Shown here: in pieces, positions 5,501 to 56,825 of the stretch
How the letters are laid out: each line of letters begins with the position of its first letter
How positions within the stretch are numbered: position 1 is the first letter of the stretch
DNA from: an uncultured Actinomycetes bacterium
GTDB taxonomy: Bacteria > Actinomycetota > Thermoleophilia > UBA2241
Assembly: GCA_963767005.1 (NCBI GenBank)
Contig: CAVYCN010000018.1
Coordinates: 68,341 to 132,340 of the forward strand
DNA: 64,000 nt
Direction: 5' to 3'
Notes under the pieces: generated by a model
The model's input: the letters and a program-made list of their open reading frames with translations, nothing else
What the model was told of the DNA's origin: nothing
Databases searched by the model: none
Translations under genes and position numbers: made by a program

Positions 5501-5537
5501 TGGAGGTCCGCTCAGGACTTCGCGGCGCGAACGTCCG

Positions 5538-7292: not shown

Positions 7293-7458
7293 GGGACTCC
7301 CGTCAGCCGACACGGGCCGAGGCGACCGGCGTCGTGGGCCCGGCCCACGAGCGGGGCCCCTCGCGCGCCTCGTGGTGGCCCCTTTCTACCCACAAGACGG
7401 GCTGCGCGGGGGCGTTCGGCGTTGGAAGTTTCGAGACGGACCGCGGAACTTCTCGGGG

Positions 7459-17332: not shown

Positions 17333-17347
17333 GGTAGGGGGCTCCTC

Positions 17348-17992
17348 TCAGTCCGTCCAGCCGTAGGCTCTGATCGGCGAGCCGTCGCCGCCGGCCAGGC
17401 GCAGCGGCACGAAGGCGCAGTGTGCGGCCCGGCCGGCGGCCAGGCCCGCCAGCTCGGTCAGATTGGTCAGGTTCTCGACGATCAGCACGTCGGCGCCCAG
17501 CAGGATCTCGTGGGCATGGGTCGTGTCCTGCAGCGAGCTGTCGACGTTGAAGGCGTCGGTGCCGACCAGGCCTACGCCGGCGGCCACGACGGCCCGGCAG
17601 GCCCCGGCGCCGAGCCAGGGGTGCTCGAACATGCCGGCGCCGCCCCAGTGACGATCCCAGCCGGTGGCCAGTAGCAGGGCGCCGCCGGCCGGCAGCCGCG
17701 CGAGCGCGGCGGCGAGCGCAGGCTCGCCGATCTCGTCGTCGGCGCCCGCCGTCACGCTCGCCACCACGGCCGGCAGCACGAAGCGCTCGAGCGGGTACTC
17801 GTCGATCGCGGAGCCGCCGCGCACGTAGTGGCCGGCGGCGTCGATGTGGGTGCCGCTGTGGCTGCCGAGCGCCAGGCGCGAGACACGCCAGGGCTCGCCG
17901 ACGGCGGCGTCGACGAGCTCGACGACCGGATCGCCGGGGTAGATCGGCATCCCGGTCGCGAGCTCGTGACTCAGATCGACGAAGTGCGTCAC
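17348..17992 (-). CDS. cyclase-family protein (kynurenine formamidase / isatin hydrolase-like)
   Basis: 'HSGTHIDAAGHY' (HxGTHxDxPxH). GTG start overlapping the permease stop (GTGA). Confidence 0.8.
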   Translation of the reverse strand: MTHFVDLSHELATGMPIYPGDPVVELVDAAVGEPWRVSRLALGSHSGTHIDAAGHYVRGGSAIDEYPLERFVLPAVVASVTAGADDEIGEPALAAALARLPAGGALLLATGWDRHWGGAGMFEHPWLGAGACRAVVAAGVGLVGTDAFNVDSSLQDTTHAHEILLGADVLIVENLTNLTELAGLAAGRAAHCAFVPLRLAGGDGSPIRAYGWTD

Positions 17993-19464
17993 GCGTTTGC
18001 TCCGGCGCGGTGCAGCTCCCTGTCGCTGGCCTCGATCGCGGCGTACTCGCTCGCCGGGTCGAAGTTGCGGGTCAGCAGGAAGTAGGCGGCGGCGGTGACG
18101 ACCACGCCGACCATCCAGGCGATGTCGACGCTGTTCAGGTAGTGACCGGCGATCGGCCCCGTGAAGTAGCTCTTCAGACTGACCAGGTTGAGCAGCACCA
18201 TGAAGGGGACCTCGGCCGCGAAGCCGATCGCATAGGCCAGCATGCCGCGCGGCGACCAGACACCGTAGATGCCGTGCGGCTTGAAGATGTCGACGATCGA
18301 GTAATGGCCGCGACGCACGAAGAAGAAGTCGATCAGGTTGGTCGTGGTCCACGGCACGAGCAGGTAGAGCATGAGGGTCAGGGCGGTGTCGACGACGCCC
18401 ACGGCGCTCGTCGAGATCGCCTTCGCGATCACGAACCAGATCACCGTCAGCACGAGGATCGTGACGATCCGCGCGCGCTTGGTGGGTGTCACCTTGCGGA
18501 ACGAGTCGACGCCGGCCAGCGTGGTGAGCATGCCGCCGTAGGCGTTCATGCCCATCGTCGCGGCGAGCGCGCTGGCCGACACGAACGCGGTGAGGCCGCC
18601 GAGGTGGCCGATCACATGGTTGCCGGCACTCTGCAGGCCGACGAGGCCGTCGGTCGCGCCCAGACGGACGGCGAGCCAGGCGCCCAGGGCGATCAGCCAG
18701 ACCGATGGGATCGCCGCGCCGCTGAACACCCAGGCGATGGTCGAGCCCTTGGCGGTGCGGCGCGGCAGGTAGCGCGAGTAGTCGGACACATAGCCGGCGT
18801 AGGTCAGGTTGTAGGCGGCCGCCGCCGAGAGCTGCGCCATAAAGCCGGTCCAGTTGAAGCCGTAGGCCGTGTGGCTGGCGACGTGGCCGGCGTGACCGGT
18901 GAGGATGCCGATCGAGATGATGCCGACGAGCGGCAGCGAGATGTAGAGCAGCCAGCGGAACATGCGGTGCAGCCAGTCGTAGCCGTAGATGGCCAGCAGC
19001 GCGGCGCCGGCCGTCGCAACGACGGCGATGACGTTCGCGTTCCAGCCGAAGGTGCCGTGCAGACCCTGAGCGAGCAGCACCTGGTCGGCCACGTTGAAGG
19101 CCATGTACGTGAAGAGCATGGCAAAGAGCGGCACGACCACGCCGCGAAAGCCGAACTGGGCGCGCGACTGGATCATCTGCGGCAGCCCGAGCACCGGCCC
19201 CTGGGTCGCGTGGAAGGCCATGAAGACCGTGCCGGCGACGATGCCGAGCAGGCCGGCCAGGATGGTCCAGTACAGCGACAGGCCGAAGGCCGGACCGATG
19301 AAGCCGATGGGGATCGTGAAGTACTGGAAGTTCCCCAGGAACCACAGCGGCCCCTGATGCCACACCTTGCCGTGTCGCTCGGAGTCGGGGATCCAGTCGA
19401 TGGAGCGCACCTCGATCCCGCTGATGCCGCTCGGGGTGCGCGTCGGTGACTCAACCGTGGCCAT
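17989..19464 (-). CDS. NCS1-family nucleobase/hydantoin:cation symporter
   Basis: 12-TMS profile typical of cytosine/purine/allantoin permeases. GAGGAGAG Shine-Dalgarno before ATG 19464. Confidence 0.85.
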   Translation of the reverse strand: MATVESPTRTPSGISGIEVRSIDWIPDSERHGKVWHQGPLWFLGNFQYFTIPIGFIGPAFGLSLYWTILAGLLGIVAGTVFMAFHATQGPVLGLPQMIQSRAQFGFRGVVVPLFAMLFTYMAFNVADQVLLAQGLHGTFGWNANVIAVVATAGAALLAIYGYDWLHRMFRWLLYISLPLVGIISIGILTGHAGHVASHTAYGFNWTGFMAQLSAAAAYNLTYAGYVSDYSRYLPRRTAKGSTIAWVFSGAAIPSVWLIALGAWLAVRLGATDGLVGLQSAGNHVIGHLGGLTAFVSASALAATMGMNAYGGMLTTLAGVDSFRKVTPTKRARIVTILVLTVIWFVIAKAISTSAVGVVDTALTLMLYLLVPWTTTNLIDFFFVRRGHYSIVDIFKPHGIYGVWSPRGMLAYAIGFAAEVPFMVLLNLVSLKSYFTGPIAGHYLNSVDIAWMVGVVVTAAAYFLLTRNFDPASEYAAIEASDRELHRAGANA

Positions 19465-19587
19465 GGCAAGCTCTCCTCTCGCCTGACGTCGTTGGGGCTG
19501 GCCGGTGGGCTGCTGCTGATCGTGCACGATCCACGGCGACCGCCACAGGCGTCGCCGGACAGAGGGACAAAAGCAGGCGCGGACGGC

Positions 19588-20487
19588 TCACGACCGTCCC
19601 GCCTGACGGGGCGCGCCGGCGCGGGCGGCGGCCGGCATGCCGGCCGCCGCCCGCGCCGGCGCGCTCACCGCGGCGTAGAGCTCGGGGCGCCGGTCGCGCA
19701 GCTGCGAGCCGTAGCCCGCGCGCGCCTGCCGGGTGTGTTCCAGGTCGACGGCGCCGGCGAGCAGAGCGTCCTCGCCGTCGTCGAGCGCGGCGACCTGGTG
19801 CCCGAAGCAATCGACGATGCGCGAGTGGCCCGAGAACGACGCCGGCCCGTCGGGTCCGGTGCGGTTGACCGCGACGTGCGGCACGACGTTGTCGTAGGCG
19901 CGGGCCGCGACCGCGAGCTCCCAGTCGGCGACGTAGGGGTCCTCCCAGGCGCCGATCGTGACGAGCAGCTCGGCGCCGGCCAGCGCGTGCGTGCGGGCGA
20001 CCTCGGGAAAGGCCGCGTCCCAGCAGATCATGAGACCGAGCTCGCCGAGCGATGTGGCGACGATCGGCAGCTCGTCGCCGTCGGCGAAGTGGCGGAGCTC
20101 GGTCTTGAGGCAGTGCGTCTTGCGGTACGAGACCACGGGGCGGCCGTTGCGCTCGAAGACGGCGGCCGCGTCGTAGATCAGGCCGGGCGCGCCGCCCGCC
20201 TCGGCGTAGCCCGCGATCAGCACCACGTCGAGCTCGGCGGCGAGGGCGGCAAGGGCCCGCAGGCTGGCGCCGTCGGGCCAGGGTTCGGCCAGCGCGGCGA
20301 ACCGCTCGCCGGCCGAGTAGCCGGTGACGGCGAGCTCGGGCGCGACCAGCAGCGCGAGCTCGGGTTGCGCCGCCTTGAGCTCGCGCCCGAGCGCGGCCAT
20401 ACGGGCCACGTTGGCCGCAGGGTCGCCGGTCGTAGGCCGCAGCTGGATGCCGCCGGCGACGATCACGGACGCACGCGGGCGGGCCAT
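19588..20487 (-). CDS. carbon-nitrogen hydrolase (nitrilase superfamily; N-carbamoyl amidase-like)
   Basis: 'YRKTHC' (Lys) and 'ICWD' (Cys) catalytic motifs. Confidence 0.8.
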   Translation of the reverse strand: MARPRASVIVAGGIQLRPTTGDPAANVARMAALGRELKAAQPELALLVAPELAVTGYSAGERFAALAEPWPDGASLRALAALAAELDVVLIAGYAEAGGAPGLIYDAAAVFERNGRPVVSYRKTHCLKTELRHFADGDELPIVATSLGELGLMICWDAAFPEVARTHALAGAELLVTIGAWEDPYVADWELAVAARAYDNVVPHVAVNRTGPDGPASFSGHSRIVDCFGHQVAALDDGEDALLAGAVDLEHTRQARAGYGSQLRDRRPELYAAVSAPARAAAGMPAAARAGAPRQAGRS

Positions 20488-20497
20488 CGGGCTCCTC

Positions 20498-21355
20498 TCA
20501 GACGTCCCGCAGGAGCGGGAACGTCATGCAGTGCGGTCCGCCGCCGCCCTTCAAGATCTCGCTGATCTCGGGGGCGATGACCTCGAGGCCGAGGGCGCGC
20601 AGCTTCGCGTTGACGTCGCGATTGCCGGCGAAGGTCAGCACGCGGCCGTCGCCGAGCGCCTGGATGTTGCAGTGGTGGGCGAGCACGCCGGCGCTGCTCA
20701 CCTCGATCAGCTCGAAGCGGCGCTTGGCCAGGGCGCGCAGGAAGAACTCGGGCATCTGCTCGACGGCGCACACAGCGACGCCCGGCGCCACGATGTTGAA
20801 GGCCATGTCGAGGTGCAGGTTGCGCGAGGGAAGCTGCACGCCGCGCACGGTGTAGCCGAGCGGCTCGAGGATCTCCTGGGCGTTGCGCAGCCCCTCCCAG
20901 TCGGTGCGCGCCACCACGCCGTGGGCCACCGTGGCCTCGTCTATGAGCCAGAAATCGCCGCCCTCCAAGGAGCCGCGGCAGACCTTGCCGATGATGGGCA
21001 CGCCGAGCTCTCGCAGCCTGGCCTCGTAGAGCAGCTCCTCGCCCTGGCGCACCGGCTCGCGGAAGCTGCCGATCAGCGCACCCTCGGCCAGACAGGCGCC
21101 GAAGTCGCGCGCGTAGACCATGTAGGGCAGCTCGGGATCGGGCTCAATGAGCTCGACCGCGACGCCGGCCTCGCGGTAGGCCGCCACGAGCTCTGAGTGC
21201 TCGCGGGAAAAGGCCGCAAGGTCGGGCTGCTCGCCGCGGGCCAGCACGCCGCGGGTGATCTCGTTGATGGGCTGGAAGCTGAAGTGGTCGGGGGGGCACA
21301 GCAGGACCTTGCGGAGCCTGCCCGTCGCGTTCGACACAAACAGCTGCTCGGTCAT
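20498..21355 (-). CDS. amidinotransferase-superfamily hydrolase (DDAH-like)
   Basis: About 285 aa, with a C-terminal 'GGGGPHCMT' catalytic Cys. GGAGAGGAG Shine-Dalgarno before ATG 21355. Confidence 0.75.
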   Translation of the reverse strand: MTEQLFVSNATGRLRKVLLCPPDHFSFQPINEITRGVLARGEQPDLAAFSREHSELVAAYREAGVAVELIEPDPELPYMVYARDFGACLAEGALIGSFREPVRQGEELLYEARLRELGVPIIGKVCRGSLEGGDFWLIDEATVAHGVVARTDWEGLRNAQEILEPLGYTVRGVQLPSRNLHLDMAFNIVAPGVAVCAVEQMPEFFLRALAKRRFELIEVSSAGVLAHHCNIQALGDGRVLTFAGNRDVNAKLRALGLEVIAPEISEILKGGGGPHCMTFPLLRDV

Positions 21356-21502
21356 CTGGGGCAACTCCTCTCCACCTGACGCTGTCGCGAGCGGAACGTA
21401 TCCGGCGCGGACGAGAGCGACAAGTGGACCTCTGCACCCGAAATGATGGATGGAAGGTGCCCTTGTACACCTGGTTTGATGCCGACGGCTGGCGGTGGTC
21501 GA

Positions 21503-22153
21503 ATGGGACCCGTGCAACGTCCCGTCATCATGTTCGACAACGACGGCGTGCTGGTCGATTCGTTCGACGCCTTCCTCGCGGCGTTCGGCGCGGCCTGCCG
21601 CCGCCACGGCCACCCCGAGGTCGGCACCCGCGAGCGGTTCCTGGGCCTGTTCGAGGGCAACTTCTACGACGCCATGGCGGCGCGCGGCGTAGCCGGCGAC
21701 GCGCTGCGCGCGATCGTCGCCGACACGACGGCCGCGCTCGACGCCTCACCGGAGCTGCAGCATCCCTTCCCCGGCGTGCCGGAGCTGCTGGGCGGCCTCG
21801 CCGCCCGCTTCGACGTTGTGGTGATCACCTCGAACGCGGCCGCCGTGGTGCGCGACTTCCTGGAGCGCGAGGGGCTCGCCGGCCTCGTGACCGACGTGCT
21901 CGGCGTCGAGACCGATCCGAGCAAGGTGCGCAAGATCGCCACGGTCACCGCGCGCTACCCCGGCCAGGCGCCGTACTACTACGTGGGCGACACGAGCGGC
22001 GACATGATCGAAGGCGCCGCGGCCGGAGTGACCCCGCTCGGCGCCGGCTGGGGCTGGCACGGGCCGGCGGCGCTCGCGACGGCCGGCGCAGCCTACGTCG
22101 CGTCCACGCCGGCCGACCTGCTCGCGTTCGTGACGGACGGCGCCGGCTCGTAG
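21503..22153 (+). CDS. HAD-IA hydrolase (phosphoglycolate phosphatase-like)
   Basis: 'MFDNDGVLVDS' and 'GDTSGD'. Confidence 0.7.
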   Translation: MGPVQRPVIMFDNDGVLVDSFDAFLAAFGAACRRHGHPEVGTRERFLGLFEGNFYDAMAARGVAGDALRAIVADTTAALDASPELQHPFPGVPELLGGLAARFDVVVITSNAAAVVRDFLEREGLAGLVTDVLGVETDPSKVRKIATVTARYPGQAPYYYVGDTSGDMIEGAAAGVTPLGAGWGWHGPAALATAGAAYVASTPADLLAFVTDGAGS

Positions 22154-27970: not shown

Positions 27971-29374
27971 CTAGCGAATGACCGGACGGCGACCGGCGAG
28001 CCCCGCCCGGAATCGCTCGACGGCCGGCAGGTGCAGGTCGAGCAGGTCGGCGATGTGCGCCTTGGCCTCGAGCGGGCTCGGGTCGTCGTAGTAGCTCGCC
28101 TCGGTCTCGAAGATGCGTCCGAGGCGCAGCTCACCGCGCAGCTCGTGCATGGCGGCGTTGTCGGACAGGTCGCGCGGCGCGACCCCGAGCCGGTCGGCCA
28201 CGTAGCGTTTGGCCTGCGTGATCCTCATGCCCTTCGCCATCTGCATCCGCGCCACCAGATCTCCGGCGGCGCGCAGTCCGTTCATGCCGGAGGCGCACGA
28301 GTGGGCGACGTCCATACCGAACGAGTCGCCCGTGCCCACCTACAAGCCGTCCAGGCGGAGCACGTCGACGCAGGCGCGCGACACCCGCGAGACGGCGTCG
28401 ACCGGCGCGAAGGCGGTCATCGGCACGCCGCCCACGCCCATGCCGACGTTCATGTGCACGGGTATCTCGGCGGCGGCCATGCAGGGCTTCACGAAGGTGA
28501 GGGCGCGAGCCACGTTCCAGGGCGTCGACCTGCTCGTGTTGGTGTTCACCGCCGGTCCGAACACCGTCGCGCCGGCCTGCTGCACCACCGCGAGCTGACC
28601 CGCTGGCTTGAGCCCCGCCAGGCGCGTGCCGCGATACTCGAGCCGGCCGTGGGTGCCGAGCACGATCTCGGCCGCCATGCCGACCATGATGCCCAGGTCG
28701 GGGTGCCGCTCCCGCAAGATCTCGACGGTGCGCAGGGTGGCCAGCAGGTCGGCGTCGCCGGCGGCGCCGGCGGTGTCGAAGTTCACACCGTCGGCGCCGG
28801 CGTCCCACATGGCCTCGGCCACGTAGACCATGTCGGCCACGGCAAGCTCGACCGCCTCTTCCTGGGCGGCGCGCGCCTCGTCGATGCGCACCTCGGGCAG
28901 GAGCTGCGCCCAGTTGCCGCAGGGTCCGTCGGGTTCCGAGTACCGGCCCAGGTCGGGCTGGGCGCCGTAGTGCACCGGCACCGTCAGCCGCTCCTGGGCC
29001 TCCTTCATGTACTGCTGCTCGAAGGGGACAACGGGCTTGACCGCCTTGTAGGAGTAGTCGATGTGGAACAGCTCGACGCTGTCGTGGGCGAGCACCTGCT
29101 CGTAGGCGTACAGGGCGTCGACCCTGCTGCCGAGCTGCGGCGTGCCGGTGCCATCCTTTGAGAGCACGACCTCGTCGCCCACATCGACCGCCGTGAAGCG
29201 CGCCTGCGACGCGAAGATGTCGAGCAGATGGTCGAGCTCACTGTCGTCGAGCGACGCCAGCTTGCCGCGGGTGGCGGCGGCCTGCGTGCCCGCGTCGAGC
29301 TCGACGCGGATGGCGCTCCGGGTCGCCTCGACGAGCGACCCGTCGCCCATCCGCATCGGGACCTGCCGTTCCAT
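27971..29374 (-). CDS. mtbB: dimethylamine:corrinoid methyltransferase-like protein (MtbB-like), copy 1, with an in-frame TAG at 28340-28342
   Basis: ORFs 28340-29383 and 27971-28339 are in the same frame, separated only by TAG. It has the 'RMGDG', 'HIDYSYK', '[11 protein letters not shown]', 'MGVGGVP' and '...LRLDGL-TAG-VGTGD...GDLVARMQ' blocks. GGAGGTG Shine-Dalgarno before ATG 29374. Confidence 0.75.
28340..28342 (-). other. in-frame amber codon (candidate pyrrolysine) in mtbB-like copy 1
   Basis: Plus strand reads 'cta'. The reading frame continues on both sides. Confidence 0.7.
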
Positions 29375-29462
29375 CAACGTCACCTCCGCGGCGCCGTCGC
29401 CCCCCTGGCGTCGGTCCCGGGGATGCTATCGCAGTCGCAGGCAAAGCGGCAACGCGCCTTCA

Positions 29463-29519
29463 GGCAAGAAGCGAGGCGGGGGCGGCGCCTTCGGCGCCGC
29501 CCCCGCCTCGCTTCTTGCC
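29463..29519 (-). terminator. 27-bp perfect-stem GC hairpin downstream of mtbB copy 2 (no U-tract)
   Basis: 'ggcaagaagcgaggcgggggcggcgcc ttc ggcgccgcccccgcctcgcttcttgcc'. Confidence 0.45.
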
Positions 29520-29550
29520 GTCGCCGGTCTGACCGCCGCGCCGCGGCCTT

Positions 29551-30936
29551 TTACAACCCGACGCGCTGCTTGAAGCGCTCGACGCTGTTGATCGTGATGT
29601 CGAGCGCCTTGGCGATGTTGAACTTGGCCTCGATCATGCCGGCGTCGCCGGGACGCACCGCGGAGGTGTGAGGCAGGCACCCCAGCCCCTTCTCGATGCG
29701 GATCTGCTCCATGGCGATCGGGTCGGACAGGTCGCGTACGCCGCAGCCGAGCTTGTCGGCGACGTAGGCCTTGGCTTCACTCAGGCGCATCCTTCGGGTC
29801 ATCTGCATGCGTGCCACGAGATCTCCCGCGGTCCGCATTCCGCCCATGCCCGAAGCCTGCGAATGGGCAGACTCCATGCCCATGGCATCGCCCGTGCCCA
29901 CCTAGTAGCCGTCGATCTTGAGGATCTCGACGAAGGCCTTGGAGGCACGCGACGTGGCATCGGCCGGCGGATAGACGCAGGTCGGCACGCCGCCCACACC
30001 CATGCCCACGTTGACGTGCACCGGGATCTCGGCGATCTCGGCGGCCGGCTTGATGAAGGTCATCGCCCGGGCGATGTTCCAGGCGGTCGACTTGCCTGTG
30101 TTGATGTTGACGGCGGGGCCGTAGATCGAGGCGCCCGCGGCCTGCACCATGCGCACCTGGTCCTTGGGCCACATGCCGGCCAGACGCTCGCCGTCGAACT
30201 CGAGCTGGCCGTGCATGCCGAGCACGAACTCGCTCGCCATGCCGATCTCGATGCCGAGCCACGGGTATCTGTCGCGTAGCATGCGGCAAGCGGTGAGGCC
30301 GGCGAGAAAGTCGGCGTCGCCGGCCGCGCCGGTCGTGTCCATGTCGATGCCGTCGGCGCCGGCTTCGATCATGTGGTCGGCGACGAAGTTGATGTCGTTG
30401 ACCAGCATGTCGCAGGCCTCGAGCTGCGCGGCGCGGGCCTCGTCGACCTTCATGAGCGGCAGCAGCTCGGACCAGTTGTCGATCGGCCCGTCGGGCTTCG
30501 AGTAGCGGCCGAGGTCGGGCATCGCCCCGTACTGCACCGGGTTCGTGCAGAGCATCTGGGCGATCTTCATCGACTGGCCCTCGTGGGCCACGTTGGTCTT
30601 GACCGCCTTGTACGAGTAGTCGATCTGCCAGAGCTCGATCATGTCGATGCCGACGACCTGCTCGTAGGTCTGCAGGTCCTGCACCCGGTTACCGATGTGC
30701 TTGGTGCCGGTGCCGTCGTTGCTCATGACGACCTCGTCGCCGATGTCGACGGCGGTGAAGCGGGCCGACGAGGCATAGATGTCGAGCAGGTGGTCGAGCT
30801 CGTCCTGATTGAGCGGGTCGACCTTGGCCCGTTTGGCGGCCTGTTGCGTGCCGTCCTCGAGGTCGGCCTTGATCTCGGAGCGCGTCATATCGACGAGCGC
30901 GCCGTCTCCCATGCGCGTTGCGATCTTGGGTTCCAA
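29551..30936 (-). CDS. mtbB: MtbB-like dimethylamine methyltransferase, copy 2, with an in-frame TAG at 29902-29904
   Basis: Same architecture as copy 1: '...ILKIDGY-TAG-VGTGDAMGMES...GDLVARMQ'. TTG start 6 nt after a GGAGGTG Shine-Dalgarno gives 'MEPKIATRMGDG'. TAA stop. Confidence 0.75.
29902..29904 (-). other. in-frame amber codon (candidate pyrrolysine) in mtbB-like copy 2
   Basis: Plus strand 'cta'. ORFs 29902-30951 and 29551-29901 share a frame. Confidence 0.7.
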
Positions 30937-31232
30937 GCGCATCACCTCCACGTGCGCACGTTCGCGGGGACCGGCCGCCGGTAGCGACCGGGACCGGATC
31001 GGACTCGGATGTGCCCCGGGTCTGGGTCACGAAGGGCCACACCGGGAGCCGTCGGCCCATGGTATATCGGCCCTCCCACCGTCCGCCACCCGGGGCACCC
31101 AGGGGCCCGAGCGCGGCACGCCGAGACCGGGACGCTCGCTCTCACCCCGAGTCGCGCCGCATCACCCCCCCTCGCGGCGGTACGACCAGGGGCGCGGCAT
31201 CACCCCACGGCGCGCCGGCGTCTCGCGCATGC

Positions 31233-31634
31233 TCAAAGCCCCTCGAGATCGAACCGTTCGTCGATGGCGAGGCAGTGGCCGACCCCCAGCCGCCGTGCGA
31301 CCAGGAAGGTCGCGCAGTCCACGAGCGACGGCTGCCGTTCGGCGCCTGCCGTGTTCAGCTCACCGATCAGTCGCTCGACGGCGAGCTCGTGCTCGACGGG
31401 TCGGACCCACTCGACATCGAACGCCGGGAGAAGATCGCGCAGGAACGTCGTCACCGCTGCCACGCCCAGACGGCGTCTGAGCACATCGACGGTCTCGAGC
31501 GCGACGTAGTTGGTGACGATGAGCCGGTCGGCCGCATCGAGCTCGTAGGCGAACATGTGCCGCGTCAGCTCGTGCTCAGGATGGCGACCGTCCAGGAGCG
31601 CGACGAGCGCCGTCGTGTCGATCAGAGTCGCCAC
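31233..31634 (-). CDS. vapC: PIN-domain toxin (VapC)
   Basis: 'VATLIDTTALVALLD...IVTNYVALETV...VDCATFLVARRLG'. GTG start 1 nt after the vapB TGA. Confidence 0.75.
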   Translation of the reverse strand: MATLIDTTALVALLDGRHPEHELTRHMFAYELDAADRLIVTNYVALETVDVLRRRLGVAAVTTFLRDLLPAFDVEWVRPVEHELAVERLIGELNTAGAERQPSLVDCATFLVARRLGVGHCLAIDERFDLEGL

Positions 31635-31635
31635 G

Positions 31636-32088
31636 TCACTCGTCGTCGCGCGGGTTGTCGAGCCAGTACCGAGGCGCTCTCCGCTCGCCGGGATCACTGC
31701 CGCGCTGCGCATTGTTCCCAGGCGCCGGACCGGCCGCCGTGTCGAACCCGGCACCGGCCGCCATGTCGAACCCTGCACCGGCCGCCATGTCGAACGCTGG
31801 GTCGGGTGCGGGGCCGGGCGTCGTGCCCGGACCAGGCTCGACGTCATCGACGACGGCCAGCGCGCGCCGCCGGACGAGACGGACGAGCGACTCAGACCGC
31901 GCTACCTGGATGTCGAGAGCGTGCCGCACGTAGCCCGCCAGGGAGAGACCATCGAGCCTCGCCCGTTCCCGGACGGCGTCGAACTGCTCTTCATAGAGCT
32001 GCACGGTCACGCGGATCAAAGGCTGACCTCGCAGGTCGCGGAGAGACCGCGGTGCCGTGCCGATGCGCGAGGCCAGCCCGTCGCGCAC
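31636..32088 (-). CDS. vapB: ribbon-helix-helix antitoxin (VapB/CopG-like) with a repeat-containing C-terminus
   Basis: 'IRVTVQLYEEQFDAVRERARLDGLSLAGYVRHAL'. The C-terminus carries 'AFDMAAGAGFDMAAGAGFDTAAG'. Confidence 0.65.
   Translation of the reverse strand: MRDGLASRIGTAPRSLRDLRGQPLIRVTVQLYEEQFDAVRERARLDGLSLAGYVRHALDIQVARSESLVRLVRRRALAVVDDVEPGPGTTPGPAPDPAFDMAAGAGFDMAAGAGFDTAAGPAPGNNAQRGSDPGERRAPRYWLDNPRDDE
31729..31800. repeat. 24-bp x 3 tandem repeat inside vapB
   Basis: Three tandem copies of 'ccggccgccrtgtcgaacccbgca'. Confidence 0.7.
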
Positions 32089-32111
32089 GGGAGGTACGGG
32101 AGTGTGGGTGT

Positions 32112-32160
32112 GTGTGGTGCCATCATGCCATCACTTTCTGCTGGCATGATGGCACCACAC
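32112..32160. repeat. perfect 19-bp inverted repeat with an 11-nt loop in a locally AT-richer spot
   Basis: 'gtgtggtgccatcatgcca tcactttctgc tggcatgatggcaccacac'. Confidence 0.7.
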
Positions 32161-32267
32161 ACCCTCGGGGTCCCGCGGCTCGAGTGGGCCACGGGCTCAC
32201 ATTTGACGCGGGAACGAGGTCACGGAGCGCAGCTGGAGCGGTTGACGAAGGAGTGGGTGCGGTCACG

Positions 32268-32411
32268 GCGACGCGATCCTCGGGCGACGCGATCCTCGGG
32301 CGGCGCGGTTCTCGGGCGGCGCGGTCCTCGGGCGGCGCGGTCGTCAGGCGGCGCGGTCCTCGGGCGGCGCGGTCGTCAGGCGGCGCGGTCGTCAGGCGGC
32401 GCGGCGGGCGG
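32268..32411. repeat. 16-bp x 9 tandem minisatellite (gcgrcgcggtcctcgg variants)
   Basis: Head-to-tail units with no spacers. It overlaps the last codons of the 2-hydroxyacid dehydrogenase gene. Confidence 0.75.
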
Positions 32412-33417
32412 TCGCGTCGGCGGCGTCGGGCGCTATGCGGATCTCGTTGACGAGTGGGCGACCGGCCTCGAAGTCGGCGGCGTTCGCGAGCGTCGTCGTC
32501 GCGATCTGCTCGAGCGCCTCGCTCGTGAAGTAACCCTGGTGCGCCGTGATCACCACGTTGGGGAACGTGAGCAGGCGACTGAAGACGTCGTCCTGGATGA
32601 TCTGACCCGACAGGTCGCGCGAGAAGAGCTCCGTCTCCTCTTCGTAGACGTCGAGACCGAGCGCGCCGATGTGGCCCGACTTCAGCCCCGCGATCACGGC
32701 GCGCGAGTCGACGAGGCCGCCGCGGCTCGTGTTGACGAGCATGACGCCGCGCTTCATCAGCGCGATGGCGTCGCGGTCGATCAGGTGGGTGGTCTCCGGC
32801 AGCAGCGGGCAGTGCAGCGTGACGATGTCAGAGGCGGCGAGCAGCTCGGCCAGCGACACGTAGGTGACGCCCATCTCGCGGGCGCGCTCGCTCGGGAACG
32901 GGTCGTAGCCCAGCAGGACGCAGCCGAAGCCGCGCAGGATGCCGGCCGTCGTGGCACCGATGATGCCCGTGCCGACGATGCCGACGGTGCGACCGTTGAG
33001 GTCGAAGCCCAGCAGGCCGTCGAGCGAGAAGTTGCCGTCGCGGACGCGCTGGTAGGCGCGATGGATCTTGCGGTTCAGCGCGAGGATGAGCGTGACGGTG
33101 TGCTCCGCTACGGCGTGCGGCGAGTAGGCCGGCACGCGCACGACGCGCAGGCCCAGGGCGGACGCGGCCGCGAGGTCGACGTTGTTGAAGCCCGCCGAAC
33201 GCAGGGCGACGAGCGTCGTTCCGCCCGCGGCGAGCGTCGCGAGCGTCTCGCCGCCGAGCTCGTCGTTGACGAAGACGGACACGCCGGGGAACCCGGCCGC
33301 AAGCGGAGCCGTGTCGGCGGTGAGCCGCGCCTCGAAGAACACGAGCTCATGAGCGAAGCTCGCGTTGGCCGCGGTCAGGAACTCACGGTCGTACCGCCTG
33401 GCGGAGAAGACTGCGAT
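32392..33417 (-). CDS. D-isomer-specific 2-hydroxyacid dehydrogenase (D-lactate dehydrogenase-like)
   Basis: Aligns along its whole length with LdhA: '[15 protein letters not shown]...[15 protein letters not shown]...GIVGTGIIG...NTSRGGLVD...HQGYFT'. No canonical start codon at the aligned N-terminus; the nearest is ATC 33417, with a GTG 45 codons upstream. Confidence 0.65.
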
Positions 33418-33548
33418 GCGCGTGGCGTCCTCGCTGGAGTCGGGCTTGCGTCCGACCCCACGGTTCCCCGCCAGGAGCAGGACAAACGCAATCGTCGCGG
33501 CGAGGCGCGATCGTCGCGACGAGGCGCGCCGCGATAGGGCGATGAGGT

Positions 33549-33590
33549 CGGCGGTGGGCGGGCGCCCATACGGGCGCCCGCCCACCGCCG
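33549..33590 (-). terminator. 19-bp perfect-stem GC hairpin immediately downstream of mtbB copy 3
   Basis: 'cggcggtgggcgggcgccc atac gggcgcccgcccaccgccg'. No U-tract. Confidence 0.45.
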
Positions 33591-33593
33591 CGA

Positions 33594-35000
33594 TCAGCGT
33601 CCGACGGGGTGCTTGCGGCCGGCCATCTCGCGGAAGCGCTCCACGCAGTTGACCGGCACGTCGAGCACGGCCGCGATGTTGAACTTGGCCTCGATCCCCA
33701 TGGGGTCGCCGACGTCGGTGATCTCGCCCGACTCGAGGATGCCGCCGAGGCCGTGCTCCTTGCGCACGTCGAGCATGACCGTCGGGTCGGAGAGGTCGAT
33801 CGTCGAGACGCCCAGCCGGTCGGCCACGTACCGCTTGGCCTCGACGAGCCGCATCCCTCGGGTGATCTGCATCCGGGCCACCAGATCTCCAGCAGTCCGG
33901 ATCCCGCCCATCCCCGAGGCGACGCCGTGGCTCACAGCCTGGCCGTACACGTCGCCCGCGCCCACCTACAAGCCATCCAGGCGCAGGATGTCGACCGCGG
34001 CGCGCGAGGCCCGGCAGGTGGCGTCGCCGGCCGGGGTGACGTGCATCGGCACGCCGCCCACCCCCATGCCGCCGTTCAGGTGCACCGGCACGGTCGCCTC
34101 GTCGCAGCACGGCTTGGCGATGGTCAGCGTGCGCGCCACGTTCCAGGCGATCGACCTGCCGGTGTTCACGTTGATCGCCGGGCCGAAGATGGTGACGCCG
34201 GCCTTGGCGGCCACCTTCATCTGCTCGCGCGGCCACAGGCCGGCGAGGCGCACGCCGTCGTACTCGAGCTCGCCGTGCATGCCGAGCACGAACTCGCCGG
34301 CCATGCCGATCTGGATGCCCACCGTCGGGTGCGCGGCGCGGATGCGCTCGACCGCCTTGAGCGTGGCGAGGAAGTCGGCGTCGCCGGCCGCGCCGGCCGT
34401 GTCGAGGTCGATGAACTCGGCGCCGGCTTCGATCAGCTCGTCGGCCACGAAGCAGATGTCGTCGACCGCGAGCTCGACCGCCTGTTCCTGGGCCGCGCGA
34501 GCTTCGTCGATGCGACCGAGCGGCAGAAGCTGCGACCAGTTCGGCACCGGACCGTCGGGCACGGTGTAGAGGCCGAGGTCGGGCATGGCGCCGTAGCCGA
34601 GCGGCGCCGTGGTCACGAACTGCGCCTGGCGCATCATGACCTGCTCGAAGGCCGTGACCCCCTTCGCCGGCTTGTAGGAGTAGTCGTGGTGGTAGAGCTC
34701 GAGCGAGTCGGCGCAGAGGTACTGCTCGTAGTACTGCAGGTCGTTGATGCGCGTGCCGAGGTCCTGGCTGCCGCAGCCGTCGAAGGACAGCACGACCTCG
34801 TCGCCGATGTCGACGCCGGTGAACCGGCTGTTCGAGCAGAAGATGTCGGCGAGGTGGGCGAGCTCGTCGGCGCCCAGCTCGGGACTCTTGCTGCGCTTGG
34901 CGCCGGCCTGCGTGCCGGCCTCGAGGTCGGCGCGGATCTGCGACGGCGTCATCTCGACGAGCGCGCCGTCGCCCATGCGCGTGCGGATCGTGGGTTCCAT
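33594..35000 (-). CDS. mtbB: MtbB-like dimethylamine methyltransferase, copy 3, with an in-frame TAG at 33966-33968
   Basis: '[12 protein letters not shown]' after a GAGGTGA Shine-Dalgarno. '...[21 protein letters not shown]...GDLVARMQ'. TGA stop. Confidence 0.75.
33966..33968 (-). other. in-frame amber codon (candidate pyrrolysine) in mtbB-like copy 3
   Basis: Plus strand 'cta'. ORFs 33966-35000 and 33594-33965 share a frame. Confidence 0.7.
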
Positions 35001-35430: not shown

Positions 35431-36939
35431 ATGCCTGAAATCCAAATGGCGACCGAGAAAGCCAAACTCACCAAGACCCTACGTCGGTGGGACATGGCGC
35501 TGTTCACCGCCTGCGCCATCATCGGGTTCGACTCGCTCGCCTACACCACCTCGGTCGGGCTGGGCCAGGCCATCACCTGGCTGATCATCACCTTCTTCAT
35601 CTTCCTCATCCCGTTCGGCCTGCTCACCGCCGAGGTCAGCACCGCCTTCCCGGCCGAGGGTGGCGTCTACGCCTGGTGCCGCATGGCGTTCGGCAAGCTC
35701 TTCGGCGAGCTCGCCACCATGATGTACTGGCTGTCGAACGCGATCTGGCTGGGCGGCACGCTGACCGCCGTCACGATCGGTGTCATCGATGTCTTCTTCA
35801 CGCCCAAACACCTGCTCGGCACCGCCGCGTCGATCGTCGTCGGCCTCGTTTTCACCTGGGTGACCATCTTCTTGTCGGTGATCAACCTCAAGTACGGCAA
35901 GTGGACGGGCAACCTGGGCACCTTCTTCAAGGCCATCATCATGGTGGTGATGGCGGTACTCGGCATCCTCTTCCTGGTTCGCCACGGCATCCCCAAGGGG
36001 ATCGCCCCGGCGAGCTCGTACACGCCCAGCATCACAGGCTTCCTCGCCGTCATCGGCGTCATCGTCTTCCTGTGGGTCGGCTTCGAGCTCCAGGGCTCGG
36101 CCAGCGAGGAGATGGTCAATCCGCAGAAGGACGTGCCGCGCTCGATTCTCAGCTCCGGCGCCATCACGACCGCCATGTACGTCGTTGTCATGCTCTGCAT
36201 GCTCCTCGTGCTGAAGGAGAAGGACCTCACCGCAGCGTCCGGCATCCCCGCCGCGGTGCAGGCCGTCATGGCCGACGCGGTGGGTAGCGGCACGGCCAAG
36301 GCGATCGGCTATTTCCTCGGCGTCATCTTCATCCTGCAGTACCTGAGCTCGGCGTCGGTGTGGACCCTGGGTTCGGCCCGCGTGCAGGCAGTGGCCTCGC
36401 TCGACGGCTCGGCCCCGCGCATGCTCGGCAAGTTCTCCAAGCAGGGCACCCCGCTCGCGATGTGCGTCCTCATGGGCATCGTCGGCTCGATCATGTGCTT
36501 CATCGTGTTCCTCGTGACGAGCGGCAGCCTGCACAGCTTCATCGTCGTGATGATCGCCCTCGACACCTCGCTCACGGTGGTCGTCTACGTCTTCCTGATC
36601 CCGGCGATGGTGCGTCTGCGCACCACGCACGCGCACGTCCATCGGCCGTTCATCGTGCCGGGCGGCGCGGTCGGCCTGTGGGCCTGCGCGGCCATCACTT
36701 GGATCCTCTCCGTCATCACCTGCATCACCCTGCTGTGGCCGGGCCTCATCAACAACATGCTCGGCCAGAGCTTCTCGATCACGGACTACGAGGGCATGTC
36801 CCGGCTGCGGTTCGAGCTCATGGACCTCGGCACGTTCGTCGTCCTCATGATCATTGGCGTGGGCTTCTGGGCCTACGGTCGTACACAGGGCACGGTCTCC
36901 GAAGACGCCGTCATCGAGGGCGTCGTCGAGGAGTCCTGA
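35431..36939 (+). CDS. APC-superfamily amino acid/amine permease
   Basis: 12-TMS profile. AAGGGGAGG Shine-Dalgarno before the ATG. It is preceded by a 180-nt leader of lower GC. Confidence 0.8.
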   Translation: MPEIQMATEKAKLTKTLRRWDMALFTACAIIGFDSLAYTTSVGLGQAITWLIITFFIFLIPFGLLTAEVSTAFPAEGGVYAWCRMAFGKLFGELATMMYWLSNAIWLGGTLTAVTIGVIDVFFTPKHLLGTAASIVVGLVFTWVTIFLSVINLKYGKWTGNLGTFFKAIIMVVMAVLGILFLVRHGIPKGIAPASSYTPSITGFLAVIGVIVFLWVGFELQGSASEEMVNPQKDVPRSILSSGAITTAMYVVVMLCMLLVLKEKDLTAASGIPAAVQAVMADAVGSGTAKAIGYFLGVIFILQYLSSASVWTLGSARVQAVASLDGSAPRMLGKFSKQGTPLAMCVLMGIVGSIMCFIVFLVTSGSLHSFIVVMIALDTSLTVVVYVFLIPAMVRLRTTHAHVHRPFIVPGGAVGLWACAAITWILSVITCITLLWPGLINNMLGQSFSITDYEGMSRLRFELMDLGTFVVLMIIGVGFWAYGRTQGTVSEDAVIEGVVEES

Positions 36940-38121: not shown

Positions 38122-39180
38122 TCAGGCCGTGGCGAACTCGAGCCGCAGGGTCTCGGCGATCTGTTCGGGCGTCACGAAGATGAGCTCGCCGCCGAGCTGC
38201 TTCTGCAGGAAGTAGTCGTCGGTGCGGTAGTCCTGCCGGAAGGCCGTGCGCGCCACGACGTGGAGCTGCACGGCGTAGGTGTCGATCGAGCCGCCGAGCG
38301 GCCCGCCCGAGAGCGTGAAGTTGAAAGCCGACAGGCCCTCGCGCTCGTACCAGGCGAGCACCCGCGAGAGCCCGAAGGCGGCCTCGCTCACCTGCTCGTC
38401 GTCGAGCGCCGCCACTCGCGCGACGCCGGGCAGCAGGCCCACGACCTCGCGCCCGCCGGTCGGCGCGAAGGGGGCCAGCCAGGTCCAGCCGGCGCGGCTG
38501 CCGATGAAGCGCTCGCCGTGTGACTGCTCCTCGTCGGCGAGCGCGCGCCAGTACGACACGCCGTGCTCGCCGCGGAAGGCCGCAGCCCGCTCCCACTGCA
38601 GACGCACGAGCCACGGCGCCCCGGTACCCCCGAAGACCTGGAAGTGAGGGTGCACCATGCTCGCCCCGGCCGGCAGCATGTTGTTACAGCACACCTCGAG
38701 GTGCTCGAGGCCGGCGACGGCGCCCTCGGCGAGCCCGGCGAACTCGACCGCCGCGCCGAGGCCCTCGTGCAGCAGGCCGGGCGCGAAGTCGGAGGGCCGC
38801 AGGAAGTGGCGCTTGGGATAGGTCACGACGGCGTGCAGCGCGGCGAGCGGGAAAAGGTTCGGAAAGACGAGGGCGCGACCGTGCTCGAGCCGGCCGCCGG
38901 GGACGATCTCGTCGGGATACCTCGGCGTGACCTCGAGCACCCTGTCGGGACAGAAGAAGCAGCCCTCGCGCGAGCTCCTGGCAAGCTGCTCCGCGTACTC
39001 CCAGTCGGTGCTCCCGTAGAACATCGCCTCTTTCGAGGCAAGCTCCGCCGACGCCACCGCCGTCGCCCCCGTGAGCGGGTCGCGCCGCACCTCGATGGGC
39101 TGCTCGGTGTGCGCCATGCCGAGCAGCGGGCTGAAGAAGGCTGCCGTCTCGGTGGTGCGCTCGAAGCTGATCAGTGCCAT
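38122..39180 (-). CDS. HIT-superfamily hexose-1-phosphate nucleotidyltransferase (GalT-like)
   Basis: 'CFFCP' zinc motif and 'HPHFQVF' (HxHxQ). GAGGGGG Shine-Dalgarno. Confidence 0.65.
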   Translation of the reverse strand: MALISFERTTETAAFFSPLLGMAHTEQPIEVRRDPLTGATAVASAELASKEAMFYGSTDWEYAEQLARSSREGCFFCPDRVLEVTPRYPDEIVPGGRLEHGRALVFPNLFPLAALHAVVTYPKRHFLRPSDFAPGLLHEGLGAAVEFAGLAEGAVAGLEHLEVCCNNMLPAGASMVHPHFQVFGGTGAPWLVRLQWERAAAFRGEHGVSYWRALADEEQSHGERFIGSRAGWTWLAPFAPTGGREVVGLLPGVARVAALDDEQVSEAAFGLSRVLAWYEREGLSAFNFTLSGGPLGGSIDTYAVQLHVVARTAFRQDYRTDDYFLQKQLGGELIFVTPEQIAETLRLEFATA

Positions 39181-39279: not shown

Positions 39280-41445
39280 CTACGCGGCCTGCGTCTGCGA
39301 GCGGGCGGCGTCGGCCAGCGTGCCGAGCAAGCCGCCGACCGACTCGCGCACCGCCTCGCTGCGTCCTCCGTCACGCACGCAGCTCCACACCAGATGAGTG
39401 TCGCCTGCCCCGTCGCCGCGCGCCGGTCCCATGACGTCGCGGATCTGGCGCTGCGCCTCGCGCAGATGGCCTTCGTCGCACGACGCGCCCATCACCGCGA
39501 GCGGCTTGCCGGCGAGGGCCTCGCGACCGTCCTGCGAGTCCGCCGCCCAGGCGAAGGCGTTGCGCAGCGCCGCGCGCACGTCGCCCTCGTACTGCGGCGT
39601 CGCCACGAGCACGGCGCCCGCCCGGCGCAGCGCGGCGCGCAGATGCTCGACCTGCACCGGCTCGGCCGTCTCGGTGGCCGCGCCGTCGCCTGGGTAGTCG
39701 GGTAGCGAGGCGACGTCGAACTCGTCGATCGTCATGCCCTCGGGCGCCTGACGCTGGGCCGCGCGGAACAGGCTGCGATGGTACGAGCGCCGGCCGCCGG
39801 CGGACGCGCTGGCCGCGACCAGGCCGAGCACCTGCACGGGGCGCGACTGCACGGCGACGGGCGCCGCGGCCCGCGCGGGACCGGCGGCGGCGGCCGGCAC
39901 GGCCGCCGCCGCCTCGGCCGCCACCTTCGCCTTCGACTCGATGAGGGCGGCCGCGAGCGCGGCCGCCCCGGCGAGCACGCCGGCCAGCACCCAGAAGCCC
40001 ACCCGGAAGCCGTGCGTGGCGGCCGCGACCGGAGCCAGCGCGCCCAGGCCGGCGTGAGTCCGCAGGTAGCTCGTCGTCGCGGTCGTGGCGACCGTCGTGA
40101 TCACCGCGAGACCCACCGCGCCGCCGATCTGCTGGCTCGTGTTGATCAGGCCCGACGCCGCGCCCGCCTCGTCGCCGCGAGCGCCGGTCAGCGACGAGAT
40201 CGTGTCGGGTACGAAGGCCAGACCCAGGCCGGCGCCCGTGAGCAGGAACCCGGGCAGCAGGTCGGCGACGTAGCTGCCGTGCACCGGCAGGCGCGTGTAG
40301 AGCAGCACGGCGACGGCGGCCAGGGCGAGCCCGACGGGCAGCACCACGCGCGAGCCGAACCGGTTGACGAGCGACTGGGCTACCACCGCCGAGACCACGA
40401 CGAGGAACGTGGTCGCGATGTAGGCCACGCCCGTCTTGAGGGCCGAGTAGCCCAGGATCTGCTGCATGTACAGGGACAGCAGGAAGAACTGCGAGAACAG
40501 GCCCGCCCCGATCAGAAAGCCGACTACGTTCGCCGCCCGGGGCGTGCGCAGGCCGAGGATGCGGAGCGGCAGCACGGCGTTGCGCGAGCGCACCTCGATG
40601 ACGACGAAGGCGGTGAGCAGACCGGCGGCGGCGATCAGCAGACCGATCGTCTCGGCCGCGCCCCAGCCGACCTGCGTCGCCCGGGTGAGGGCGTAGACGA
40701 GGACCATGAGGCCGCCGGTCACGGTCACGGCGCCGGGCAGGTCGAAGCTGCGCCGGGCGCCCTCGAGACGGCTCGCCGGCAGCAGGAACGGGCACAGCGC
40801 GATCAGCGCCGCGCCGATCGGCACGTTGATGTAGAAGATCCACTGCCAGCCCAGGCCGCTCGTCAGCACGCCGCCCAGCAGGGTGCCGGCCGCCGCCCCG
40901 CTGCCGGCGATGCCGCCCCAGATACCGAGCGCCAGGTTGCGCTCGCGGCCCTCGGCGAACGTCGCGACCAGGATCGACAGGGCCGCCGGCGACAGCAGCG
41001 CGCCGCCCAGCCCCTGGATGCAGCGGAAGGTGATGAGCGACGCCTCGGACCACGACAGCCCGCAGGCGAGCGAGGCGCCGGCGAACAGAATGAGCCCGAT
41101 CATGAACAGGCGCCGGCGGCCCAGCACATCGGCGAGGCGGCCGCCCAGCAGCAGGAACCCGCCGAAGAAGATGGCGTAGGCCGACAGCACCCACTGCAGG
41201 CTCTCGACCGAGAAGTGCAGGTCGCTGCGGATCGAGGGCAGCGCGACGTTCACCACCGCGACGTCGAGCACGACCATGAACTGGGCCACGCAGATCGCGG
41301 CGAGGATGTACCACTTGCGGCGATCCCAGGCCGAGCGGCCCGGGCTCGGCGCGTCTGCGCCGCGCTCGCCGCCCGGGCCCGAGCGGCCCGCGCCCGGTCC
41401 GGCTGCGCCGAAGGCGGGTGACGGAGATGTCTGAGGGTCGGCCAT
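39280..41445 (-). CDS. MFS transporter (DHA2/EmrB-like, 14 TMS) fused in-frame to a C-terminal NADPH-dependent FMN-reductase-like domain
   Basis: AGGGAGAGG Shine-Dalgarno before ATG 41445. About 510 aa of MFS, then an Ala/Pro linker, then '...VLVATPQYEGDVRAALRNAFAWA...GKPLAVMGAS'. There is no stop codon between the two parts. Confidence 0.7.
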   Translation of the reverse strand: MADPQTSPSPAFGAAGPGAGRSGPGGERGADAPSPGRSAWDRRKWYILAAICVAQFMVVLDVAVVNVALPSIRSDLHFSVESLQWVLSAYAIFFGGFLLLGGRLADVLGRRRLFMIGLILFAGASLACGLSWSEASLITFRCIQGLGGALLSPAALSILVATFAEGRERNLALGIWGGIAGSGAAAGTLLGGVLTSGLGWQWIFYINVPIGAALIALCPFLLPASRLEGARRSFDLPGAVTVTGGLMVLVYALTRATQVGWGAAETIGLLIAAAGLLTAFVVIEVRSRNAVLPLRILGLRTPRAANVVGFLIGAGLFSQFFLLSLYMQQILGYSALKTGVAYIATTFLVVVSAVVAQSLVNRFGSRVVLPVGLALAAVAVLLYTRLPVHGSYVADLLPGFLLTGAGLGLAFVPDTISSLTGARGDEAGAASGLINTSQQIGGAVGLAVITTVATTATTSYLRTHAGLGALAPVAAATHGFRVGFWVLAGVLAGAAALAAALIESKAKVAAEAAAAVPAAAAGPARAAAPVAVQSRPVQVLGLVAASASAGGRRSYHRSLFRAAQRQAPEGMTIDEFDVASLPDYPGDGAATETAEPVQVEHLRAALRRAGAVLVATPQYEGDVRAALRNAFAWAADSQDGREALAGKPLAVMGASCDEGHLREAQRQIRDVMGPARGDGAGDTHLVWSCVRDGGRSEAVRESVGGLLGTLADAARSQTQAA

Positions 41446-41768
41446 CGTCCTCTCCCTGGCCTCGTGGCTCGGCGGCGCACCGTTCCGGCGACGCGCCGCC
41501 CCGCGGTCTTGCCTGTCGACTTCGGCGGCGCGGACCGGTGGTCTTCTGGACGTCACGACCACGCGGCAGGGCCCGCCCCGGCCAATCGTTTCGCCGTGCT
41601 TTCCCCGACTTTTGAGCGCCCAACCCATCAGATCGCCACGGGTGAGCAACGGCTCCGAGGACTAAGGCGACCACACGCCGGGGTATCCCGAGGCCGACGC
41701 GGCGCCGGGGTCGCAGGCCGGCCGCCGCCGTCCCGAGGGATGCAGGCTCGAACGAGAGGGACAGCTGC

Positions 41769-42924: not shown

Positions 42925-43000
42925 TGGAGCCGGCGGGGGGAATCGAACCCTCGACCTGCTGTTTACAAGACAGCTGCTCTGCCAACTGAGCTACGCCGGC
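42925..43000 (-). tRNA. tRNA-Thr (anticodon TGT)
   Basis: The reverse complement folds as a cloverleaf: acceptor GCCGGCG/CGCCGGC, D-arm GCTC-AGTTGGC-AGAGC, anticodon arm GCTGT-CTTGTAA-ACAGC, T-arm GAGGG-TTCGATT-CCCCC (one A.C mismatch), then CCA. Confidence 0.8.
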
Positions 43001-56674: not shown

Positions 56675-56825
56675 CGTCTGGTCGCCCTTTGTCGTCGTCG
56701 CCTGGTTGTCGTCTGCCTCGTCGGCTTGCTCCCGTTCGCCGAGTCCCGGTGGGGCGCCGGCGAGGTACGCGGCCCGGCGGGCGTCGCCCGCCGGGCCGCG
56801 CGTGGCGCCGGCGCCGCGTGCGTGA

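Follow-up and report, generated by a model that had tools for sequence, protein, structure and literature searches.

Three mtbB genes with an amber codon in the pyrrolysine column in a Thermoleophilia genome, and the pyl locus of its relatives

In a stretch of 64,000 nucleotides from an uncultured Actinomycetes bacterium (contig CAVYCN010000018.1 of assembly GCA_963767005.1, hereafter the window), we analysed three genes of the dimethylamine methyltransferase family MtbB, each of which is interrupted by an in-frame TAG codon. The three genes very probably encode pyrrolysine (Pyl)-dependent MtbB isozymes, whose UAG codon is read as Pyl in a host of the class Thermoleophilia. The finding is genuine but of a kind that is already known, namely Pyl-type MtbB in Actinobacteriota, to which the window adds a further member; new here is the description of the pyl locus for this lineage.

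Three mtbB genes and the position of their TAG codons

The three genes and their products, with the TAG given as the putative Pyl codon, are as follows.

27971-29374, minus strand: mtbB copy 1, 467 aa, Pyl codon 345 (TAG at 28340-28342), PF09505 match over residues 6-456 with E 1e-161
29551-30942, minus strand: mtbB copy 2, 463 aa, Pyl codon 347 (TAG at 29902-29904), PF09505 match with E 8e-167
33594-35000, minus strand: mtbB copy 3, 468 aa, Pyl codon 345 (TAG at 33966-33968), PF09505 match with E 1e-162

The first-pass annotation had described three pairs of same-frame open reading frames (ORFs), each split by a single TAG at these positions, and this is what the ORF list and direct translation contain: every mtbB frame is interrupted by exactly one TAG and continues in the same frame on the other side. 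Codon numbers and lengths were counted from the likeliest starts (ATG at 29374, ATG at 30942 and ATG at 35000), with GTG codons at 29383 (copy 1) and 30951 (copy 2) as alternatives. For copy 2, whose boundary had earlier been set at 30936, the likelier start is 30942, where the protein begins with MRLEPK... in agreement with the 346-aa database homologues.

All three joined proteins match PF09505 (Dimeth_Pyl) with 539-556 bits against a cut-off of 25, covering profile positions 4-462 of 463. They also score above the cut-off of 369.1 bits for the equivalog TIGR02368, '[dimethylamine--corrinoid protein] Co-methyltransferase', with 423.7 bits for copy 1, 421.9 for copy 2 and 400 for copy 3. Their identity as full-length members of the MtbB family is confirmed. 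The copies are 58-59% identical to one another in pairwise comparison. The N-terminal motifs quoted earlier are present, although with variation among the copies: the first reads HIDYSYK, QIDYSYK or HHDYSYK, and MDTTGAAGDAD is among the forms of the second. Around the UAG position (O), the sequence includes ...IDGY-O-VGTGDAMGMESAHSQASGMGGMR. The closest relatives of copy 2 are 96% identical and belong to Thermoleophilia/Actinomycetes assemblies, and the N-terminal parts of copy 3 have 97-98% identical counterparts in metagenomes.

The first-pass annotation had further placed the TAG in the pyrrolysine column of the family, and this assignment is supported by a model match, by the ends of distant homologues and by conservation. 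The consensus of RF02509 (PYLIS_2, mtbB) opens with UAG, and all three copies align with model positions 1-100 from their own TAG onwards.

28243-28342, minus strand: RF02509 match in copy 1, 73.3 bits (gathering score 36), UAG at positions 1-3
29805-29904, minus strand: RF02509 match in copy 2, 54.8 bits, first helix with five non-standard pairs per side
33869-33968, minus strand: RF02509 match in copy 3, 50.6 bits, several non-standard pairs

Since copies 2 and 3 hold many non-standard pairs in helix 1, these matches, including that of copy 1, would mostly reflect conserved coding sequence. It has been reported that no PYLIS-like element is discernible in mtbB and that the PYLIS of mtmB1 is not essential for Pyl incorporation (PMC2933860).

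Through an exhaustive HMMER search of 1.84 billion representative proteins, we obtained five distant MtbB representatives of 353-356 aa, to which the window genes are only 39-47% identical. All five end in ..DG[LV], one column before the window TAG, and are therefore cut at the same amber codon. The PDB sequence search returned no detectable MtbB relative. By contrast with these Pyl-type proteins, the paralogue P0270 (33% identity) is full-length at 463 aa, and it carries Trp at the Pyl position and an FDTxGAAGDAD motif that has degenerated. Judged by its sequence it is a non-Pyl paralogue within the MtbB family; it shares the family of the window genes without their FDTxGAAGDAD motif and, like MtgB of the MttB superfamily, has a sense codon in the Pyl column, whereas the window genes are not of this kind but of the Pyl type.

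We searched the window together with 57 related loci (L001-L057) for a motif in which the residue of the Pyl column was left free. TAG was found at this position in 78 of 78 homologous genes, which excludes chance. Pooled dN/dS values in the three paralogue groups were 0.21, 0.31 and 0.33 after the TAG, compared with 0.19, 0.26 and 0.26 before it, and third-position differences dominate on both sides. The part downstream of the TAG is thus under purifying selection and is therefore translated in the same frame. On these alignments, pseudogenes and assembly errors can be taken as excluded as the source of the TAG codons. Selection rather than a decaying pseudogene had been suggested at the outset, and the dN/dS of 0.21-0.33 after the TAG and its complete retention agree with this. 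The core of the first-pass annotation, an MtbB with an amber codon in the Pyl column that is kept by selection, is accordingly supported by the family cut-offs, RF02509, the 78 genes and dN/dS together.

The use of Pyl by MtbB for the activation of dimethylamine is established for the family. Compared with MtbB1-3 of Methanosarcina barkeri, the window genes belong to the same family (PF09505/TIGR02368), carry a single amber codon in the same column, occur likewise as three isozyme genes in one genome and have the conserved sequence after the UAG (..O-[VI]G.GD...AGDLVARM) in common. In M. barkeri, the position of the amber codon in each of mtbB1-3 is conserved within the enzyme class (PMC2933860). 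Unlike M. barkeri, however, the window host is a bacterium of about 70% GC and not a methanogen, TAG is a common stop codon in it, and the window genes have no adjoining mtbC, mtbP or ramA; coenzyme M in its methanogenic role cannot be the methyl acceptor.

The relatives of copy 2 were collected in a scan with one genome per species, which yielded 56 loci in 48 assemblies. All of them are uncultured, metagenome-assembled Thermoleophilia, Actinomycetota or 'Actinomycetes', with one exception, and their sources include Microflora Danica, palsa, bog and fen of Stordalen Mire, and Lac Pavin, among others. The exception (L034, CAWHEJ010000012.1, MFD04716.bin.3.457) carries the label 'uncultured delta proteobacterium'. 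With an mtbB that shares 86% identity with copy 2 and that adjoins the same tRNA-Thr as in the Thermoleophilia loci, this contig has probably been given a wrong label or sorted into the wrong bin.

The pyl locus of the lineage and the proposed reaction

For the search of the aminoacyl-tRNA synthetase, we used the catalytic domain of PylRS from Methanosarcina mazei (sequence verified against PDB entry 2q7e) as the tblastn query. It matched in one locus, L032 (contig CAVOGK010000002.1), with 39% identity and E 1e-59. The PylSc encoded there scores 322 bits with TIGR02367 (cut-off 178) and lies 8 kb from a TAG-bearing mtbB on the same contig, while another contig of the same assembly (contig 12, L055) holds a ligA-mtbB-tRNA-Thr-mtbB locus like that of the window. 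No further contig shared by PylSc and MtbB was found among the matches listed, and the direct links between the two are therefore L032 at the level of the contig and L032/L055 at the level of the assembly. Searching with the PylSc of L032 gave 3944 matches. Identity is 78-100% throughout the best 120, whose lengths are 284-286 aa; several carry the NCBI name 'pyrrolysine--tRNA(Pyl) ligase large subunit [Thermoleophilia bacterium]'.

The contigs L058-L069 share one common chromosomal pyl locus. Its first part runs gltX – decarboxylase – pyrE – tldD/pmbA – ... – bacA – amidase – pylSc, and pylSc is followed by genes for an MtbC-like corrinoid protein, a 292-aa radical SAM protein, a 109-aa ORF (pylSn) and a Germane-domain protein. 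The last part consists of tRNA-Pyl – pylD – pylC – pylB – nitroreductase – ThiS – ferredoxin – AFOR. The start of pylSc overlaps the end of the gene for the peptidoglycan (cell-wall) amidase in L058-L062 and L069 (e.g. L061, 8919-17437). The complete pyl set is present in L058-L062, and the scores for L061 against the NCBIfam equivalog cut-offs are given below.

PylB: 448 bits (cut-off 348)
PylC: 331 bits (cut-off 248)
PylD: 206 bits (cut-off 150)
PylSn, the 109-aa ORF: 127 bits (cut-off 51)
PylSc: 327 bits (cut-off 178)
Pyl-type corrinoid protein: 229 bits (cut-off 215)

A 73-nt tRNA-Pyl with the anticodon CUA was detected by ARAGORN directly after pylD in five of five loci (L058-L062). It folds into a compact cloverleaf in which one base separates the acceptor and D stems, the D loop has 5 nt, the anticodon stem is long and the variable region very short; these are hallmarks of tRNA-Pyl. 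Related Thermoleophilia assemblies thus encode pylT, pylSc, pylSn and pylBCD, and the objection anticipated by the first-pass annotation, a genome devoid of pyl genes, does not apply to this lineage.

On the basis of these components, which are seen in the lineage and would be expected in the window genome too, the following route can be proposed. The internal UAG is most likely read by Pyl-tRNA(CUA), where the tRNA-Pyl would be charged by a split synthetase, PylSn together with PylSc, and the pyrrolysine made by PylB, PylC and PylD. By analogy with the relatives, the pyl genes would lie at a separate chromosomal locus. In full-length MtbB, Pyl would then serve to bind and activate dimethylamine, and the enzyme would transfer a methyl group to the Co(I) corrinoid of an MtbC-like protein, such as the one encoded beside pylSc in the relatives. 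A further methyltransferase would pass the methyl group on, probably to tetrahydrofolate, since the hosts are not methanogens. The route would need a methylcorrinoid:tetrahydrofolate methyltransferase and a reductive activase, neither of which was found in the stretches examined.

The Thermoleophilia system has much in common with that of the bacteria known to possess a split PylS, such as Desulfitobacterium hafniense, Acetohalobium arabaticum, Bilophila and deltaproteobacterial symbionts: the same split PylSn/PylSc, pylBCD and tRNA-Pyl(CUA), a nearby pyl-type corrinoid gene, and UAG that still serves as a stop elsewhere in the genome. It differs in phylum (Actinomycetota) and in the enzyme, which is MtbB in two to three copies far from the pyl locus and not MttB. 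The gene order differs too. In D. hafniense it is pylT-pylSc-pylBCD-pylSn, whereas the Thermoleophilia have pylB-pylC-pylD-pylT, with pylSn apart and pylSc overlapping the end of the amidase gene.

Amber recoding had been called unexpected in such a host, and this part of the first-pass annotation has to be withdrawn. PylRS was listed in two Actinobacteria (Guo 2022, PMC9630628), and Pyl-type mtbB was found to be expressed in Actinobacteriota assemblies of Stordalen Mire (Ellenbogen 2023, PMC10805028), where the genus Bog-752 was among the most active methylotrophic bacterial genera (PMC10805028). Since Pyl systems and expressed Pyl-type mtbB have already been published for Actinobacteria, and NCBI protein names also place Pyl there, the host is less surprising. 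The assembly bog_752 (L004) carries all three paralogues, with a copy 2 that is 93% identical to the window's, and palsa_645, palsa_647 and fen_672 carry the mtbB paralogues as well. The window is of the same lineage and holds the same genes as the Stordalen Mire and Guo genomes, while representing a further, non-identical genome. Those reports recognised the Pyl genes by amber truncation (PMC10805028) or by the presence of PylRS (PMC9630628), and the pyl locus, the tRNA, the usage of TAG as a stop and the codon context are undescribed in both. Literature searches that combined pyrrolysine with Thermoleophilia, related taxa or soil terms gave nothing relevant, and a full-text search for pyrrolysine with Actinobacteriota gave no relevant paper beyond PMC10805028.

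The lineage is widespread: the searches yielded 2786-3944 clusters of MtbB and PylSc proteins, whose top matches all belong to this clade, and 48 assemblies represent it at the species level. Its members share a conserved pyl locus on the chromosome and have two to three MtbB isozymes; none is known in culture or from biochemical work. They point to bacterial consumption of dimethylamine in peat and soil, where it would set these bacteria in competition with methylotrophic methanogens.

Competing explanations

Several observations weigh against the reading of UAG as pyrrolysine in this genome. The 64-kb window contains neither a pyl gene nor a tRNA-Pyl, as judged from about 45 ORFs searched with Pfam and NCBIfam and from ARAGORN, which reported a tRNA-Thr only. 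Likewise, 56 of the 57 related loci have no pyl gene or tRNA-Pyl at less than 10 kb from mtbB; for tRNA-Pyl this holds in all 57, where only tRNA-Thr and a few other tRNAs were found at this distance. No corrinoid protein, activase or second methyltransferase adjoins the window mtbB genes. We infer the pyl locus of the window genome from its relatives, and the closest of these (L003, MFD02138.bin.2.13), despite the same gene order round mtbB, has neighbours of about 70-94% protein identity. Pyl insertion is not known from protein data for any actinobacterium. Finally, TAG is an ordinary stop codon here: the 38 confident window genes end in TGA (25), TAG (11) or TAA (2), and the TAG share of 29% raises the question of how unwanted read-through is avoided. 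The sigma-70 gene, grpE and even mtbB copy 1 are among these TAG-ended genes (e.g. 4243-5511, 56057-56920 and 27971-27973), and TAG also terminates 32 of the 78 mtbB genes of the window and its relatives. UAG is therefore not reassigned, and its read-through must be partial, context-dependent, or induced or regulated. Even so, it is highly probable that the window's genome carries a pyl locus.

One alternative is that the genome has lost, or never had, a working pyl system, so that UAG stops translation and only N-terminal fragments of about 345 aa are made, as inactive relics or for another role. Besides the absence of pyl genes from the window and the normal use of TAG as a stop in this genome, such a state would fit the annotation of homologues as 342-346-aa proteins by gene callers and in GenBank. 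However, in-frame purifying selection acts on the roughly 120 codons after the TAG in the three paralogue groups, the frame closes with a regular stop, invariance in all 78 genes would not be required of a dispensable terminator, and complete, conserved pyl loci exist in the lineage. We therefore consider the loss of pyl function very unlikely.

Still less probable is a split enzyme, in which the N-terminal part ends at the TAG, the C-terminal part is started separately at the following GTG, and the two chains assemble. A GTG does follow the TAG in all three window copies, and the downstream ORFs are listed with GTG starts. In 29 of the 78 genes, however, the TAG is followed by a codon that is not a start (GTC, GTA, GTT, ATC or ATA), and only one of the 78 has a Shine-Dalgarno-like motif ahead of the TAG, so re-initiation is unlikely; the archaeal consensus has AUA after the UAG. 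Mass spectrometry has also put Pyl at the UAG of Methanosarcina MtbB (PMC2933860), and the characterised enzyme is therefore a single chain.

A similarly slight chance attaches to the insertion of a standard amino acid at UAG by a near-cognate or other suppressor tRNA, with no involvement of pyrrolysine. The Trp in the corresponding column of P0270, at 33% identity, indicates that the fold tolerates a standard residue. If a standard residue sufficed, one or more of the 78 diverged genes would be expected to have exchanged TAG for a sense codon, whereas none has done so; the lineage conserves a dedicated tRNA-Pyl together with PylS and PylBCD, encoded beside the MtbC-like gene. As for sequencing or assembly errors, many related assemblies are long-read metagenome genomes with frameshifts, in which some homologues are split or missed, but the same TAG column in three 58%-identical paralogues and 75 further genes from independent short- and long-read assemblies effectively refutes this explanation. 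Pyl-dependent MtbB thus remains the preferred reading of the three genes.

Codon context of the TAG and genes around the mtbB cluster

The residue before Pyl is Leu in 44 and Tyr in 34 of the 78 genes. All 34 Tyr residues are encoded by TAC, while the Leu codon is TTG in 42 cases and TTA in 2, with no other codon used (window sites 28343-28345 and 33969-33971). Elsewhere in the same mtbB genes, TTG and TTA together make up only 5.2% of the Leu codons. For a comparison by column, we used the 60 genes that could be aligned over their full length, in which 42 columns hold 20 Leu or more. Of these, only the one that precedes the TAG, with 34 Leu, reaches 100% TTG; the next highest has 20% and the median is 2.5%. 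This restriction of the Leu codon 5' of the Pyl TAG may represent a context constraint on the decoding of UAG.

A wider proposal can be built on this, which we regard as doubtful. UAG may have a dual function, as a frequent stop (about 29%) and as the Pyl codon, and the rare UUG/UUA before it (44 of 44 Leu, otherwise UAC) may be a cis-acting signal that favours Pyl-tRNA over the release factor, a context undescribed for pyrrolysine; high-GC actinobacteria of soil and peat may then form a large, overlooked reservoir of Pyl decoding and of non-methanogenic dimethylamine use. The lineage could serve as a high-GC model of UAG as both a stop and a sense codon.

A scan of every TAG in the window for flanking sequence of coding composition (GC by codon position of about 0.70/0.46/0.94) found such sequence on both sides only at the three mtbB sites, apart from a junction at 39282. 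At this junction, TAG closes the gene for an MFS-FMN reductase fusion (39280-41649), and the gene behind it (38122-39180), which matches no family, is in the same frame. As a fourth read-through site, 39280-39282 was rejected: the shared frame is not kept in relatives and looks like a coincidence.

The window has about 70% GC and holds a sigma-70 gene, ligA and dnaK-grpE-dnaJ-MerR/HspR-clpB. The earlier description of the host by its GC content, dnaK-HspR operon and sigma-70 gene matches these genes, and the relatives are labelled Thermoleophilia/Actinomycetota; the host is an uncultured actinobacterium of soil or peat, of the class Thermoleophilia. Two further features adjoin mtbB genes in the window or in related loci.

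35431-36939, plus strand: APC-family permease gene, divergent from mtbB copy 3; AA_permease_2 match with E 2e-40, no NCBIfam match above cut-off
42925-43000, minus strand: tRNA-Thr(UGU), found by ARAGORN; not a suppressor tRNA

The permease gene adjoins the mtbB cluster in L003, L004, L070 and L071 as well, and its product may be a transporter of dimethylamine or of a precursor. L070, a contig of a JGI metagenome, has a copy 3 that is 98% identical and shows the layout of the window, with the permease, three mtbB genes and a GGDEF-GAF-HD gene. The same tRNA-Thr adjoins mtbB in most related loci and is a landmark of synteny.

In the window, copy 3 is separated from copies 1 and 2 by a D-2-hydroxyacid dehydrogenase gene (32392-33420) and a PIN-domain toxin pair. 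In the latter, the toxin gene overlaps with a small ORF upstream of it that probably encodes the antitoxin; the pair lies at 31233-32088 between mtbB copy 2 and the dehydrogenase gene. The mtbB copies of other relatives are adjacent or have the tRNA-Thr between them.

A gene of the DDAH/arginine deiminase superfamily at 20498-21745 (Pfam DDAH_eukar, E 1e-31), which is present in L003 too, lies beside genes for a CN-hydrolase, an NCS1 permease and an ornithine carbamoyltransferase (window 16397-21745). If it encoded a true dimethylargininase, its activity would supply dimethylamine within a few kb of the mtbB genes. The candidate was set aside as weak for such a local source, with an NCBIfam score for dimethylargininase of 85 bits against a cut-off of 300. 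At 5889-7385 there is a radical SAM gene with a B12-binding domain (class B), which scores above the cut-off of no named subfamily; its presence indicates the use of cobamide cofactors by the host, in keeping with a methyltransferase system that depends on corrinoids.

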